From a virus (taxonomy: Duplodnaviria > Caudoviricetes): a DNA stretch of 64,000 bases. A program made the translations under genes and the position numbers. Within the stretch, counting starts at the first letter, position 1. Every line of letters begins with the position of its first letter. Location of the stretch: IMG/VR virus record IMGVR_UViG_3300017774_007926, positions 1,560-65,559 of that record; one strand, written 5' to 3'. Under the pieces are notes generated by a model. The model worked only from the letters and a program-made list of their open reading frames with translations. It was not told the DNA's origin and ran no database searches. This document shows, piece by piece, positions 30,788-37,007 of the stretch.

Positions 30788-30815
30788 ATCATAATAGACG
30801 GCGTGTGATTGTCAA
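30788..30815 (-). promoter_or_regulatory. Sigma70-type promoter for ssb
   Basis: TTGACA-16 nt-TATGAT. Confidence 0.65.
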
Positions 30816-32434
30816 GATCTCGGCGTAAAACACTTTTCAACCACCAAACCATCCTTTGTTTTTGTTTTGTTTCCAATGAAAATCAATACATTTCCTTGGA
30901 ATAAGTGATGCTTGTATGTTTCCAGCTGCTCTGGAAAAAAGATAATAGAATCTAATAAACCATAAGCATCCTCCACGCTGACAAACGCCATTTCTTGTCC
31001 TGGATTCTTACCTTTTTTGGTTTTAATAATATTTACATTACTAACTTCACCAGCCAAGATTATTTTTTCTGACAATAGCGTGGTTTTAAATTCTTTACAA
31101 TTAGTATTAGTCATACTTATATCATAAGAATCTAGCTTAGAGCACGATATTGCAACGCCCAATAATGAGTTTTCTGAATCTGATAACCATTCAATCTTAT
31201 CTGTTAATGAGTACGGAGGATGCTCCAATGATCTAACCAAGTTAGAGATTGGCTCTATTCTCTTTTTTGTTATCTTTTCATTAAGCAGGGCCGATAGGCT
31301 GATCCTTATATCTGCTGTTGGATTATCTTTTATAAGACAGTCGAATAATTCCAACTCTTTCTTAGTTAAAGATGACAATATATCATAATGAAAAAGTATT
31401 TCTGTTCGATTTTTCCTAAAGTAATCTAGAGCACCGCTACCAACAAGAGCTTTAGCAGCTGTGGAGTTGATATTAAGTAGTATATGGCAAATACATTCTA
31501 AATATCCTAATAAATTAATATCTTTCTGTTGTGTAAGCTCTAGTAGCTTTTTGAATACAGAATCTCCAACCCCCTTAATATCCGTTAATCCGAAGTATAT
31601 ATTCTTGTCTTTAATAAAAAAGTTCTTATTAAGATTTCGTAGATCCGGGAGCCTAACATCAATACCCATTTCGTTGGCGTTTCTTGCTAATTCTTTGATT
31701 TCCTGTTGAGGATCTATTTTGTCCTTAGCAAATTTTAAGTAAGAGGCAAAAAATACTCTAGAGAAGTGAGCTTTTGCATAAGCTGAGAGGTATGCGTTCA
31801 TCGCATAACTAATACTATGAGACTTATTGAAAGAGTATCTTTGTGATTTTTCAATCCAGCCGAAGATTTCTTCTGCCTGATCCTCTGTTACTATGTTCTT
31901 TTCTTTAGATCCTGTTAAGAATTTTTTCTTCAATTTAGCCATTTCTTCTGGTTTCTTTTTTCCAATAGCTTTTCTTAACATGTCCGCTTCCTGCAAGTCA
32001 AATCCTGCAATATCGTGGGCTATCTGCATACTTTCTTCTTGATATATCATTTCTCCATATGTTGTCTTTAGCGCCGGTTCTAACGCCATATGAAAATAGT
32101 CAATACTTTCCAATCCATTTTTCTTGTCTATATAGTGATTGGTAATACTTTTACCGTCTCTAACAGATTCTAAGCATCCTGGCCTAAGAATAGCTATTAA
32201 CCCAGATAATTGTTCAATATTTTCTGGCTTAAGTTTTTTAGCCATCATTTGACCAAGCCTAGACTCCAATTGAAAACATCCTTTGGTATTACCTTCAGAT
32301 ATTAGATCCCAAGTTCTATAGCATTCCAGATTAAGATTTTCTATATTAGCAGAAAATTCTATTTTTGGAATATCACCTGAACCATCTATTACCTTAAATT
32401 TACAGCCACAATCAAATGCAAAAAAATCAGACAT
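30812..32434 (-). CDS. dnaE: DNA polymerase III alpha, C-terminal piece (fingers, HhH, OB fold)
   Basis: GCFQLES, RPG, YQEE, EADMLRKAIGKKK, YSFNKSHS, FGLTDIKGVG, MAFVSVED. Confidence 0.9.
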   Translation of the reverse strand: MSDFFAFDCGCKFKVIDGSGDIPKIEFSANIENLNLECYRTWDLISEGNTKGCFQLESRLGQMMAKKLKPENIEQLSGLIAILRPGCLESVRDGKSITNHYIDKKNGLESIDYFHMALEPALKTTYGEMIYQEESMQIAHDIAGFDLQEADMLRKAIGKKKPEEMAKLKKKFLTGSKEKNIVTEDQAEEIFGWIEKSQRYSFNKSHSISYAMNAYLSAYAKAHFSRVFFASYLKFAKDKIDPQQEIKELARNANEMGIDVRLPDLRNLNKNFFIKDKNIYFGLTDIKGVGDSVFKKLLELTQQKDINLLGYLECICHILLNINSTAAKALVGSGALDYFRKNRTEILFHYDILSSLTKKELELFDCLIKDNPTADIRISLSALLNEKITKKRIEPISNLVRSLEHPPYSLTDKIEWLSDSENSLLGVAISCSKLDSYDISMTNTNCKEFKTTLLSEKIILAGEVSNVNIIKTKKGKNPGQEMAFVSVEDAYGLLDSIIFFPEQLETYKHHLFQGNVLIFIGNKTKTKDGLVVEKCFTPRS

Positions 32435-33122
32435 TACCAAATGACCCCTTAAACTTTATCTTGTTAGATAAATTCCTATGTAATTTTAGAAATCTAATCA
32501 ATATATCTGCAGTATCTTTTACGTCCTTCAAAGCATCGTGAGCACCTTCTTTAGATATGCCTAAATAATCTCTAAGATTATCCAGAGTATAGTTCTTGAG
32601 CTCATTATTGCCTTCAAACCAATAAAATACCATGTTCATTAAATCTACAACATCTCTAGGATAGAATAAGCTAGACTTACCTTCTTTATTGAGATTATTA
32701 TACTTATTACTAAGTCTCTCAATAATCTTAAGGTCAAATCTATTTATATTGTATCCAGCAGCAATAGGAGCACTAAAGCAAGATTTTCTTTCAGATCTGG
32801 TATGATACATATCAAGGTATGATGTGAACATTTTCCATCCATGATCTTGCTTCTGATAAGAACCCCATTCTTTTAGAATATCTGCTTTAGAAGAACCCCT
32901 AACTTTTGCATGAAAATCTAGAACATCGCTATCTGCATAGTCGTATTCTGGATTATCTATCAGAGCTTCTGGTTTAATACTGATATTAAATTCAGAATCC
33001 GGAACTACTTGTAATTTAAGAGGATCTATAATAATAGCAGCTATCTGAACAGGACTACATTTTTCTGGATTGATACCGTCAGTCTCGAAATCGAAAACAC
33101 AAATTTTTTGAAAATTAGGCAT
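32427..33122 (-). CDS. DEDDh 3'-5' exonuclease (DnaQ/epsilon-like)
   Basis: VFDFETDG, AGYNINRFD, AHDALKDV. Confidence 0.9.
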   Translation of the reverse strand: MPNFQKICVFDFETDGINPEKCSPVQIAAIIIDPLKLQVVPDSEFNISIKPEALIDNPEYDYADSDVLDFHAKVRGSSKADILKEWGSYQKQDHGWKMFTSYLDMYHTRSERKSCFSAPIAAGYNINRFDLKIIERLSNKYNNLNKEGKSSLFYPRDVVDLMNMVFYWFEGNNELKNYTLDNLRDYLGISKEGAHDALKDVKDTADILIRFLKLHRNLSNKIKFKGSFGNV

Positions 33123-33294
33123 TAATAACTACCACTAGGTTATCGGTAAAAAATACTCTTGAATTAATATTGTCAGATAAATGAGCATTTACTGACTGAC
33201 AACAAGTAATTTTTACAGAGTTTGTCTTTACATACTCAGAACCGTTTACACTGAATTTTTCTCCTACTGCTAATTCACCGAAAGTTTTTTCCAT
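33115..33294 (-). CDS. Small hypothetical protein (59 aa, not in the ORF track)
   Basis: MEKTFGELAVGEKFSVNGSEYVKTNSVKITCCQSVNAH...; fills the gap between dnaE-N and the exonuclease exactly, with GGAG RBS upstream. Confidence 0.65.
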   Translation of the reverse strand: MEKTFGELAVGEKFSVNGSEYVKTNSVKITCCQSVNAHLSDNINSRVFFTDNLVVVINA

Positions 33295-33296
33295 AA

Positions 33297-35182
33297 TTAT
33301 TCTCCATTTTTTAATAGGTCAGAAATAGTCATAACTTTATCCAACATAGCTACTCCTAGAATATCGAATTTAATTACACCCAAAGCTTCCAAGTCTTGCA
33401 TCTCCATGCCTGCAATAAGTTGGTCATTTTTTGAATCATAAATCATGGGACAAACATTACTGAGCTCATCAATACTAATAACAATACCAGCAGCATGTTT
33501 TGATTGATTGGATTTAGTTCCTTCTAAACGAATAGCCTGCTCAAAACGCTTTGCCAGAGGGCCAGCAAGCTCTCCCTCTTCATTAATATAGCACCACTCC
33601 TTGAGTTTGTCAACATTGTTTTCTAATGCCCAACGGATAATAGATGCTTCGCCAGTATCTTCTTTCATCTCTTGCAACTCGTCTGCAATTTTTGCTTCGT
33701 CCGGAATATATTTTGTTATACGATTCATCTCTTCAAATGCCACATTACCATATACTCTTAATACCTCCTTTAAAGCTCCTCTTCCTTTCATAGTATTATA
33801 AGTTATCATTTGAGATACCTTATTGCTTCCATACTTATTTTTAATATATGAGATGATTTCTTCTCTTTTATTGATTGGTACGTCAACGTCTATATCTGGC
33901 ATAGAAATACGGTCGGCAGTATTTCGGCCAGAATTATAAAATCTACTAAATAGTAGATCGTACCTTATGGGATCTATAGCAGTAATTCCTATTAAGTATG
34001 AGACCAAACATCCTGCAGCAGACCCTCTTCCTGGTCCTGGAAGCCAATTATTAGACTTAACATTATTGAGTATGTCTTGAATTATCAAAAAGTAGCTTGA
34101 CAACCCAGCACCCTGTAAAACATCTAGTTCTTCCTTAATTCTATCGACATAGATTTGTTGCTTATCCTTTGGGATATTATTGGCTATCTTATCTCTCCAA
34201 CCATTTCTACATAATTCTCTTAAATATTCATCTGGATTAAATCCCTTTGGGCATTCGAAATTTGGAAGAGCAGGCTTATTTAGAATGTCATATGATTCTA
34301 TCATAGAGTCTATATGATTGGTATTATCTATTTCTTCTTGAGAATGTAAATTAGCCATTTCTTCTGGAGACAATATGTAATAATTATCTGACTTAAAAAA
34401 ACATCCCATAGGAACATCTTCGTTGTTGAGTATCTTTTTATTAATATCAACAAGAGTAGTCTTTAGATTATTGCATAACAGAATTCTTTGATCAACAGCA
34501 TCTGACTTATCGCAATAATGAGCATCCGGTGTGCATATGACTTTTGTTTTAGTTATTGAGCCAAGTCTTCTTATTAGATCTGTTAGCTTAACCTGTTCTG
34601 GTATATGTTCTCTATCCATGAGTTGAGACTCTAAGAAGAAATTATCTTGACCAAAAATATCCTTCATTTTAGCTATCATTTCAATAGCTTCTTTCTCGGG
34701 ATCGTCATTGGATCTTAGTATCTTATTTGCCAATACTGATCCTAGGTGACCACAAAAGCCAATTAGATTACCGTCTAAAAATTCTTGTAATCTATTAAAA
34801 CTTAGTCTAGGCTTATGATAAAAATTATGCTTGCTATTAGATTCAGATATGATTCTTATTAGACTAGCCCACCCCTTTTTGTTCTTAGCCAAGACTATAA
34901 AATGTCCAAGCTTACTATTTTCTTTAGTCTTTACATGAGAATCATCTTCACTAATATATAATTCACAACCTAAAATGGGTTTGATGCCATTAGATTTCAT
35001 TGACTGGTAAAACTGTACAGTTCCAGATATTGTTCCGTGGTCAGTAATTGCACATGAAGTTACGCCAAGAGTATTACATCTTTTTGCAATTTGTGCCGGT
35101 TTAGATAGTCCATCCAAAAGTGAGTAATGTGACCCACTTAAGAATGGACGTGCAGAGGAATATACCTCTTATTCACGTCCAT
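33297..35182 (-). CDS. dnaE: DNA polymerase III alpha, N-terminal piece (PHP + palm), interrupted by an 11-nt insertion after codon 14
   Basis: MDVNKRYIPLHVHS* (ATG 35182, AAGGA RBS) joins HYSLLDGLSKP if 11 nt are skipped. Also AITDHG, PGRGSAAG, MPDIDVD, HAAG, KFDILG. Confidence 0.9.
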
Positions 35183-35234: not shown

Positions 35235-35262
35235 ATTGTACGATACGAATAGGTATTGTCAA
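35235..35262 (-). promoter_or_regulatory. Sigma70-type promoter for dnaE-N
   Basis: TTGACA-16 nt-TACAAT in the 92-nt intergenic gap. Confidence 0.7.
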
Positions 35263-35274
35263 GCGAAAGAGATA

Positions 35275-36318
35275 TCATTCTGTGGTTCCAGGTGCTTTGT
35301 ACTTTGCAAATGAGTGATTTTTATTCTTATACTCTTTTACAACAGAATCCATACCATTAAGATTAATATCATGCTTAATTTGTTCACATTTTGTCATTGT
35401 TGAACCCACACCGCATGTCTGATTTTCTCTATATTCTATTTGTGGCTCTATATGAGTATTATCAAATGTTGTTTTACCAAAATGACATAATTTTGTACAC
35501 ATCCAGCTTTTATTTAGTCTTGGTTTTCGTGTATTCTTAACTATTTCAAATTTTTGACGCAACATGTCTTCTGTTTTAGAAAGATCTGATTTATCAAAGC
35601 ATATGGAAAAAGGACCGCCATCGTTAATAAAATAGATAGAAAATATGATATGGTCTATGTGAGGATATAAATGACTAATAGCATAATGATATATTCGTAG
35701 CTGTGGGTCGTTCTGTAGTTTTTCTAAAGTCTTTTCTTGTCCGGTTGCCCAATCTAATCTTCGACCGGTTTTCCAGTCAATAATCTCGATAGTATTATCG
35801 TTTACTAGAGTTATAAGATCTATTGTACCCTTAATACCCAGATTGCCTTCTAGCTTACCCTCTGGAGTATCATAAGAATAAGCTGCCCATGGTTTTTTAA
35901 TTTCAATATCAAAATGTTGTTCTGGACATAGTATATGCCTATTTCTTGGATCGAACATACCGTCATTAAATTCTATTGCTTTGTAAACCCACGCATGACA
36001 ATCTTTATAGTCTTTTGGTGTCCATTTATGAAAAGCTTCTGCCGTAGAATAATAGTCATATACTTTTTGTATTATGCTATCTAAATTATATGATTCAACA
36101 TTAATAGATCCAATAATATCATCAACAAAAACACTAATATTATCTTGTTGAGATTTTTTAATAATAGCTAATATTTCCAACACTTTATGAACTACCGTTC
36201 CTTTAGAAGCTTTGAGACCGCTCACACCTCTCCAACCCAAAACATATTCAAGAAAATACTGTTGCTCACATAAAGAATGGGTGTTGTATGATGAACTGCG
36301 AAAATAAGTTACAATCAT
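35275..36318 (-). CDS. PD-(D/E)XK exonuclease, Cas4/AddB-like with probable Fe-S staple
   Basis: GTVVHKVLE, GTIDL...IIDWKTG, QLRIY; Cys at LCEQQ plus WMCTKLC and further C-terminal Cys. Confidence 0.8.
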   Translation of the reverse strand: MIVTYFRSSSYNTHSLCEQQYFLEYVLGWRGVSGLKASKGTVVHKVLEILAIIKKSQQDNISVFVDDIIGSINVESYNLDSIIQKVYDYYSTAEAFHKWTPKDYKDCHAWVYKAIEFNDGMFDPRNRHILCPEQHFDIEIKKPWAAYSYDTPEGKLEGNLGIKGTIDLITLVNDNTIEIIDWKTGRRLDWATGQEKTLEKLQNDPQLRIYHYAISHLYPHIDHIIFSIYFINDGGPFSICFDKSDLSKTEDMLRQKFEIVKNTRKPRLNKSWMCTKLCHFGKTTFDNTHIEPQIEYRENQTCGVGSTMTKCEQIKHDINLNGMDSVVKEYKNKNHSFAKYKAPGTTE

Positions 36319-37007
36319 TTTTTATTTTTCCTATTGTGTTTTGTTATTACTTGACAAAAATCTAAAAATTCATCATCCGATAATTCCCATTTCATATTAT
36401 TTACAGTTTTATGAACCCATCTTATATTATTAATATTGTAGCCATATTCACTGTCTATTCTATCTACAGAGGCTGTTTGAGTAGTGTGTTTTTCTCCAAT
36501 TTTATTGAATCGTATATTAATACCAGATAGTGCACACCTACCATTTTGTTTTACAAATAAATCCCATAAATCTTCCATTGTGATACTAAATTCTAAGTTT
36601 CTACGTTTTGCTCCACCTACTAGAGAACAAAAATATCTACCAGATATTGTGTGATGTGTTCTTTTTTTTCTATCTATGACAGCTTGACTTCTTGTATGCT
36701 CTCTTTGGGTAATCCCAAATTTTTTAAGGGCTTTAGAAATAATTGATTTTCTCTTGAATCCAGCTTTATGTGCGACAGACTTTAAGCTTAAGTTTTGCTT
36801 GATATAATACTCTTCTAAAAATTCTTTTGTTATAATTTTAGAACTATCTTTAAGAGAACATCTATTTATTGCATGTCTTTTCCTCGCCTGAATAACAGAA
36901 TTTACGGAAGAAATATTTAATTCTTCAGCTATTTTTTTATCGCTTTTTCTTTGATTGATGAAATGTTCTGTGAGATATTCTTTAGTTAAGATGTCTTTAG
37001 GTTTCAT
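36315..37007 (-). CDS. Free-standing HNH homing endonuclease-like protein
   Basis: Two N-terminal I.TKE.L..... HTH-like repeats; CALSG...SVDRIDSEYGYNINNIRWVHKTVNNMK. Confidence 0.75.
   Translation of the reverse strand: MKPKDILTKEYLTEHFINQRKSDKKIAEELNISSVNSVIQARKRHAINRCSLKDSSKIITKEFLEEYYIKQNLSLKSVAHKAGFKRKSIISKALKKFGITQREHTRSQAVIDRKKRTHHTISGRYFCSLVGGAKRRNLEFSITMEDLWDLFVKQNGRCALSGINIRFNKIGEKHTTQTASVDRIDSEYGYNINNIRWVHKTVNNMKWELSDDEFLDFCQVITKHNRKNKK

Follow-up and report, generated by a model that had tools for sequence, protein, structure and literature searches.

The dnaE gene carried by a 64-kb piece (here called the window) of the 65.6-kb IMG/VR virus record IMGVR_UViG_3300017774_007926 is interrupted after its 14th codon by 11 nucleotides (nt) that open with a stop codon, and comparison with related loci suggests that ribosomes probably cross this gap by short-range programmed translational bypass. 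This reading draws on the anatomy of the site, its conservation, the co-variation of its helices, the coding constraint on both sides of the gap and a link to a nuclease gene, all of which were observed here. Gap coordinates, codons and helices refer to the minus strand of the window, and the elements at the interruption are the following.

35141 to 35182, minus strand: open reading frame (ORF) 1, 14 codons, the DnaE N-terminus, ending Tyr-Ile-Pro-Leu-His-Val-His-Ser
35141 to 35143, minus strand: putative take-off codon UCU (Ser), the last codon of ORF1
35130 to 35140, minus strand: 11-nt coding gap, opening with UAA at 35138-35140
35130 to 35132, minus strand: putative landing codon UCA (Ser), the final three bases of the gap
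33297 to 35129, minus strand: ORF2, the remainder of the N-terminal part of DnaE (N-part), resuming at CAU (35127-35129) with His-Tyr-Ser-Leu-Leu-Asp-Gly

ORF1, with an ATG start codon at 35182-35180, contains the first strand of the PHP domain with its His-x-His (HxH) metal ligands, and ORF2 carries the PHP plus pol III alpha domain and the polymerase core. The codons after the gap are CAU UAC UCA CUU (His-Tyr-Ser-Leu), followed by a UUG at 35117. A preliminary description of this DNA had read the minus strand as CAC GTC CAT TCT, a UAA stop and then CAT TAC TCA CTT, and the window holds exactly that; its further claim, that removal of 11 nt restores the canonical PHP motif, was borne out with the gap at 35140-35130. 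The description was also right about the lack of an ATG or GTG start in the downstream frame: in the window, no AUG, GUG or UUG is in frame ahead of the His-Tyr-Ser-Leu codons. The first start proposed by the ORF finder is UUG 35117, giving an ORF (33297-35117) of 606 residues whose PHP match begins at profile position 11 of 164, so that the HxH strand is absent from it. The remaining PHP metal ligands are intact in ORF2, as judged by alignment with the DnaE proteins of Taq and M. tuberculosis, which indicates that the HxH strand is needed. In a complete 152-kb relative, 98% identical in DnaE, dnaE is the sole polymerase gene of families A, B and C.

The interruption is widespread among relatives of the window. 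A protein-similarity search of IMG/VR gave 58 related loci with DnaE N-parts 64 to 98% identical; in 19 the same Ser codon is directly followed by an insert that opens with a stop, and 39 are uninterrupted. Comparison of dnaE 5′ ends, suggested in the preliminary description as a check for presence and covariation of the insert, thus found no one-off: the insert recurs in these 19 of 58 relatives and its helices co-vary. The identical 11 nt are present in contigs from three other samples (L001, L046 and L002), which excludes an assembly error. A DNA pattern search contributed 65 true matches, and a looser DNA pattern for the first helix described below (stem-loop 1, SL1) gave mostly chance matches among the matches listed, together with at least four useful new variants, a UGA-stop type among them. 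Once duplicates are removed, the set comprises 50 distinct sequences, whose gaps measure 8, 9, 10, 11 or 12 nt and all lie at exactly the same codon. The stop that opens the gap may be UAA, UAG or UGA, and only UCU or UCC precedes it; at this position UCA, UCG, AGU or ACU also occurs in uninterrupted relatives.

The gap lengths span all three reading frames. No single rule of frameshifting or readthrough would therefore serve all variants, and only a frame-independent event, i.e., a hop or a restart, fits them. Frameshifting or readthrough inside the gap (+1, +2/−1 or suppression of the stop, depending on the variant), which would add two to four residues to the PHP motif, is very improbable. 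The downstream frame is indeed open across the gap of the window, and gaps of 9 and 12 nt are in frame bar the stop, but a different mechanism would be required for each gap length, there is neither a slippery site nor a suppressor tRNA, and variable extra residues would fall between the HxH and Ser/Asp ligands, whose spacing is fixed in solved DnaE structures.

Both sides of the gap evolve as protein-coding sequence. The eight codons before it encode Tyr-x-Pro-Leu-His-Val-His-Ser in 50 of the 50 distinct sequences, in which all changes of the Tyr, Pro and Leu codons are synonymous; five different Leu codons are used and no Phe codon occurs, vs about four expected from base frequencies. The four codons after the gap encode His/Met-Tyr/Phe-Ser-Leu, and nearly all of their variation falls at third positions. 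Relatives with about 70% identity in the DnaE N-part keep these four codons before the UUG, as well as the 14-codon ORF, at the protein level, and the 14-residue ORF is under protein-level constraint even in variants that possess a start codon in or beside the gap.

This constraint bears on the possibility that there is no recoding at all, i.e., that the gap is a scar of nuclease immunity only and DnaE, started at UUG 35117, lacks the HxH strand, with proofreading left to a DnaQ-like exonuclease. In favor of this, gap-bearing loci nearly always have the UUG chosen by the ORF finder, the exonuclease is encoded separately (32427-33122), and some DnaE PHP domains, e.g., that of E. coli, have lost metal ligands. 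Nevertheless, we regard this explanation as decidedly improbable: every other PHP ligand is kept, the codons upstream of the UUG are conserved as protein, and the UUG is also part of the region of stem-loop 3 (below). In addition, the UUG is CUG in L002, L134 and L194, so a downstream UUG start is not general.

Of the 50 distinct variants, 32 close the gap with UCA, UCU or UCC and the remaining 18 with ACU, GCU or GCC. An in-frame AUG (replacing the His codon) or GUG lies beside or overlaps the stop in 25 of the 50. Among individual types, L087 (8 nt) has no start, L061 (8 nt) has GUG and L062 (10 nt) has AUG; the gap is 10 nt in L036 and 12 nt in L089. Every one of the 24 distinct variants without an in-frame start, the window included, ends its gap in UCA, UCU or UCC, with variation at the third base only. 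The preliminary description had proposed UCA as a landing codon synonymous with the take-off codon, a proposal with which this UCN ending agrees. The pattern suggests that a Ser landing codon is needed where restart is impossible, and some lineages may have switched to termination-reinitiation.

Three helices are predicted around the gap. The 98-nt leader folds at −32.6 kcal/mol (z score, −4.9), and none of 200 shuffled sequences folded as well.

35174 to 35182, minus strand: SL1, 5′ arm, formed by the start codon and codons 2 and 3
35144 to 35152, minus strand: SL1, 3′ arm, formed by the His-Val-His codons directly 5′ of the take-off codon
35118 to 35139, minus strand: SL2, take-off (A-site-type) hairpin of 8 base pairs with a 6-nt loop
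35142 to 35149, minus strand: SL3, 5′ arm, a lower stem extending SL2 and including two bases of the take-off codon
35108 to 35115, minus strand: SL3, 3′ arm, formed by Leu-Asp-Gly-Leu codons

The 9-base-pair stem of SL1 is absent from uninterrupted relatives; across 46 distinct sequences it is 99% paired, and 16 of these have A-U in place of G-C, a double change. SL2 begins at base 2 of the stop and extends as far as the third position of the Leu codon that precedes UUG 35117, with the landing and resume codons at its top. This is the hairpin that the preliminary description had placed at 35118-35139, starting inside the stop codon; it is present with the dimensions given above, and it co-varies. 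A hairpin starting at the first or second base of the stop folds in every variant, whatever the gap length, and the stop co-varies with the Leu codon before the UUG (UAA with UUA, UAG with CUA and UGA with CUC). Variation in the 3′ arm of SL2 is confined to third codon positions. The MAFFT alignment misregisters the SL2 arms of variants with 8- to 10-nt gaps, so the pairs of SL2 were tallied in two other ways, first within the 11-nt subset and then in an alignment of the 50 sequences fitted to the structure. In the latter, which leans towards the structure, five of the eight SL2 pairs show double changes; 97.8% of its cells are paired, with double changes in six pairs, values that 0 of 500 shuffles reached, while slid controls paired 33 to 51%. 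The ungapped 11-nt subset gave the same picture.

The RNAalifold consensus is SL3, which competes with SL1 for the same bases. All eight SL3 pairs form in all gap-bearing loci of the protein-search set, compared with three to seven of eight in uninterrupted relatives. Each gap-bearing locus was matched once by a covariance model of SL1 and SL2, which matched nothing in five uninterrupted relatives or in the remainder of the window; its weak matches on the antisense strand only mirror the palindromic nature of SL1. Rfam gave no match at E values up to 1.

The structured hairpin around the gap also speaks for removal of the gap from the RNA, by a mini-intron or by cleavage and ligation. The preliminary description had left the choice between bypass and intron open. 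Comparative evidence upholds the bypass half of that interpretation, although the 25 variants with an in-frame AUG or GUG may not need to bypass, and the intron half is not supported: 8 to 12 nt leave no space for a ribozyme core, Rfam gave no match, and the terminal G expected of an intron is not conserved, the last base being A in L005 under the excision frame. We know of no splicing machinery in bacteria or phages for inserts of this kind, and removal at the RNA level is scarcely credible.

We infer the hop, the roles of the helices and the protective role discussed below from sequence comparison, and propose the following order of events. Translation would start at AUG 35182, and 14 codons would be decoded, until the ribosome pauses with peptidyl-tRNA-Ser on UCU (35143-35141) and UAA in the A site. 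SL2, extended by SL3, would form at or in the A site, hindering access of the release factor and slowing release. SL1 would then refold behind the ribosome: as its 3′ arm ends one base before the take-off codon, it can close only after 8 to 12 nt have exited, and its folding would pull the mRNA forward by about the gap length. The retained tRNA-Ser would re-pair with UCA (35132-35130) and decoding would resume at CAU 35129, giving a single DnaE N-part containing Leu-His-Val-His-Ser-His-Tyr-Ser-Leu-Leu-Asp-Gly.

A phage tRNA is apparently not involved. Among the related complete genomes examined, none encodes a suppressor tRNA or a UCN tRNA, and the nearest has no tRNA at all; tRNA sets are the same with or without the gap. 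This nearest genome (G001, the 152-kb record of L046, the closest to the window) lacks any tRNA gene. Two complete relatives of 180 to 200 kb, one gap-bearing and one not (G002 with L008 and G003 with L014), have largely overlapping sets of 9 to 11 tRNAs, among them a Ser tRNA with anticodon ACU.

The elements of the site can be compared with those of phage T4 gene 60, whose listed signals include a take-off codon that is matched by the landing codon, followed by a stop and enclosed in a take-off stem-loop (bioRxiv 10.1101/2022.08.31.505936). A 5′ stem-loop has been proposed to propel the ribosome there, with pairing of the exiting mRNA as the driver (10.1101/2022.08.31.505936; 10.1101/2024.12.09.627546). 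In the dnaE gap, the take-off and landing codons are read by the same tRNA and do not overlap (UCU to UCA in the window), an undecodable codon is provided by the stop that directly follows the take-off codon in every variant, predicted SL3 and SL2 form a take-off stem-loop that holds the take-off codon and whose top part starts at the stop, and SL1 is a separate 5′ stem-loop able to form behind the ribosome, a role that we assign to it tentatively. The likeness of layout to gene 60 seen in the preliminary description, i.e., matched codons, a stop at take-off and predicted take-off and 5′ stem-loops, is therefore real. Both gaps also lie near the 3′ end of an HNH nuclease gene that is often decayed or lost, are patchily distributed and are hosted by an essential replication gene.

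The differences from gene 60 are equally clear. Its gap is 50 nt in a topoisomerase subunit gene, vs 8 to 12 nt in dnaE. Unlike gene 60, the dnaE site has take-off after only 14 codons with no long nascent-peptide signal, a landing codon inside the take-off hairpin and an SL1 that includes the start codon, and it is known from sequence alone. Membership in the homologous gene 60/MobA family (topoisomerase large subunit, gap of about 50 nt) was considered and rejected, the host gene being dnaE and the gaps 8 to 12 nt. No sequence homology between the gene 60 cassette and the dnaE cassette described below is evident, a comparison in which homology of the HNH protein to MobA was not tested.

Several points weigh against bypassing, and some of them favor termination and reinitiation. 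First, 17 of the 50 variants combine a gap end of ACU, GCU or GCC with an in-frame AUG or GUG, for which reinitiation is the simpler explanation, and in one type (L087) both a matched codon and a canonical start are missing. Second, decay of the landing codon goes with presence of a start codon, but only about five evolutionary events underlie this association, which does not reach significance when phylogeny is taken into account (two to five independent pairs, an underpowered comparison). Third, the 14 residues made at take-off are conserved but form an ordinary DnaE N-terminus, found in uninterrupted relatives too; so short a nascent chain would hardly have room for a tunnel signal of the gene 60 type, and drop-off of the peptidyl-tRNA would be a risk. 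Fourth, with the landing and resume codons atop SL2, this hairpin would have to melt for decoding. Finally, the His-Val-His codons are also paired in the RNA, and their conservation alone is no proof of translation.

In the split-gene alternative, the 14-residue HxH peptide would be released at UAA and translation would restart nearby, producing a DnaE without its first strand, with which the peptide may or may not assemble. Reinitiation is likewise independent of frame, and in the 25 variants with an in-frame AUG or GUG the gap also contains a stretch of purines resembling a Shine-Dalgarno sequence; 17 of these 25 have a mismatch at the codon that would serve for landing. Moreover, insertions of homing endonucleases are known to split genes into subunits that assemble, e.g., T4 genes 39 and 60 (bioRxiv 10.1101/2022.08.31.505936). 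Not every member of the family, then, needs bypassing. As a general explanation, however, reinitiation is unlikely, if worth serious attention. The window and 23 other variants have no in-frame start, yet their His-Tyr-Ser-Leu codons evolve as coding sequence, and three relatives have CUG in place of UUG 35117. The constraint on the 14-residue ORF would not be accounted for by a leader peptide that is discarded, and the peptide would have no role unless it acted in trans; we know of no precedent for a 14-residue strand supplied in trans to a PHP barrel. A quite unlikely combination is that one clade handles the gap in two ways: Ser-ended gaps would be crossed by an efficient hop of 8 to 12 nt, measured by a switch between SL1 and SL3 and with a 14-residue chain sufficing, and gaps with AUG or GUG would yield a free 14-residue HxH micro-subunit acting in trans on DnaE.

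Under the bypass reading, one parallel is the terminase gene of Streptomyces phage phiHau3, in which a 10-nt gap has experimental support (a 7-nt gap occurs in a prophage); these gaps follow a rare UUA codon and are candidates for regulatory bypass (PMC10732093). Like the dnaE site, that of phiHau3 interrupts an essential phage gene by some 10 nt at a point where the protein is highly conserved; RNA structure flanks both sites, each has a Shine-Dalgarno-like element, and frameshifting is disfavored in both since it would add residues. The A site differs, holding a rare sense codon linked to the physiology of the host in phiHau3 and a stop codon in dnaE. Only three genes of the phiHau3 kind are known, whereas the dnaE gap has dozens of natural variants and a linked homing-endonuclease gene. 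Bypassed inserts (byps) of 27 to 55 nt have been described in mitochondria of Magnusiomyces capitatus, in which 81 inserts resembling GC clusters occur in 12 genes of one genome (bioRxiv 10.1101/2022.08.31.505936). Like the dnaE gap, byps are mobile inserts bypassed in translation, with an undecodable A-site codon at take-off; the dnaE gap differs in occurring at one site per genome, in being much shorter and in not being mitochondrial. Low-level stop-hops, in which 9 nt specify one residue, were reportedly seen in E. coli by Weiss and colleagues in 1987. In these also a peptidyl-tRNA hops over a stop to a nearby synonymous codon, but they are unprogrammed, reach about 1% and arise in synthetic or overexpressed genes, whereas the dnaE gap has conserved helices in a natural essential gene.

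Established cases of programmed bypassing in nature are limited to T4 gene 60 with its homologues and to the mitochondria of one yeast (bioRxiv 10.1101/2022.08.31.505936). Beyond topoisomerase gene 60 homologues, the sole similar report from phages is the phiHau3 terminase candidate (10.1101/2022.08.31.505936; PMC10732093), and a literature search for bypassing together with DnaE found nothing relevant. On these grounds, the dnaE gap would be a new variant of translational bypass.

The distribution and surroundings of the gap point to a mobile origin. Gap-bearing and uninterrupted genes are intermingled on the DnaE tree, and well-supported branches force at least seven changes. Gap-bearing genes also differ at their 5′ ends: they have their own ribosome-binding site and, at the N-terminus, about three additional codons from which SL1 is formed, and a spacer separates them from the upstream PD-(D/E)XK nuclease gene, the stop of which is overlapped by uninterrupted dnaE. 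In six gap-bearing lineages this spacer is filled by a gene for a 238-residue HNH/EndoVII-type protein with N-terminal helix-turn-helix motifs, and three more have HNH remnants, compared with an HNH gene at this site in 0 of 32 uninterrupted loci (Fisher P = 0.011). One such HNH gene occupies L012:2227-2940. The HNH ORF ends inside dnaE codons 3 and 4, at a UGA in another frame, so that the 5′ arm of SL1 doubles as the last nuclease codons where the gene is present. An endonuclease gene by the altered site, a patchy distribution and decayed copies, the hallmarks of a homing cassette, are all seen among these loci. The gap is most likely the scar of an HNH homing-endonuclease cassette that replaced the dnaE 5′ end. 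In T4, the insert of the MobA/gene 60 system shields its host gene from the nuclease, and decay of the nuclease gene is common (bioRxiv 10.1101/2022.08.31.505936); by analogy, the gap probably protects dnaE from the nuclease of the cassette.

No HNH copy adjoins dnaE in the window, which retains of the cassette joint only about the final 30 nt. It keeps the cassette-end UGA in the region of dnaE codons 1 to 4 (35171-35182) despite the loss of the endonuclease gene. Its spacer was considered as a decayed nuclease gene, an idea rejected because only these last ∼30 nt are homologous to the cassette joint. The spacer is 98 nt long only in the closest relatives of the window and much shorter in most other gap-bearing relatives. 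A promoter match sits in it, and a free-standing endonuclease gene lies further upstream.

35235 to 35262, minus strand: sigma-70-like promoter match (TTGACA, 16 nt, TACAAT; 11 of 12 positions, a match to consensus only) between the PD-(D/E)XK nuclease gene and dnaE
36315 to 37007, minus strand: free-standing HNH/EndoVII-type endonuclease gene, two genes upstream of dnaE

The latter gene is located between the dNMP-kinase-like and PD-(D/E)XK nuclease genes, and its product has 29% identity to the dnaE-abutting HNH protein of other gap-bearing phages. It is absent from L001 and L046, relatives with 98% identity, and present at 41 to 43% identity in L002 and in the uninterrupted L050. A tie of this gene to the gap was judged weak, as it is missing in the 98%-identical relatives and present in one uninterrupted relative.

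The dnaE gene of the window (30812-35182, minus strand) is also split past the polymerase core, with the following order of elements after ORF2, an order (N-part, 59-residue ORF, exonuclease and C-part) kept in nearly all relatives.

To 33297, minus strand: end of the dnaE N-part, followed by a 59-residue ORF at 33115 to 33294
32427 to 33122, minus strand: separate DnaQ-like exonuclease gene, between the 59-residue ORF and the dnaE C-part
30812 to 32440, minus strand: dnaE C-part with fingers, HhH and OB

In L080, an HNH-type ORF lies exactly at the junction of the N- and C-parts, about 1854 to 2513 nt after the UUG anchor and just past the N-part stop, which hints that this split too may stem from insertion of a homing endonuclease. 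The N-part ORFs of L054 and L124 stop at 455 and 418 residues, respectively, with 1.1 to 1.2 kb of extra sequence; the PD-(D/E)XK gene of L124 is in two pieces about 950 nt apart; and in L044 an insertion of about 1 kb separates the exonuclease gene from the C-part of dnaE. For mobile inserts, the replication module appears to be a hot spot.

A search of a cultured-phage collection found no DNA match that would represent a close cultured relative of the window; at the protein level, the best identities there were only 33% (DnaE) and 25% (helicase), so this collection holds no laboratory representative. Gene callers cut such dnaE genes short and overlook the metal-binding strand.

If the proposed mechanism is correct, these phages possess an independent and far shorter bypass in a different essential gene. 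The dozens of natural variants form a ready mutational series in gap length, identity of the stop, landing codon and helix pairs. With them it becomes possible to test how a ribosome leaves and re-finds its frame without a long nascent-peptide anchor, whether refolding of the mRNA behind the ribosome sets the hop distance and how selfish nuclease cassettes create recoding sites.

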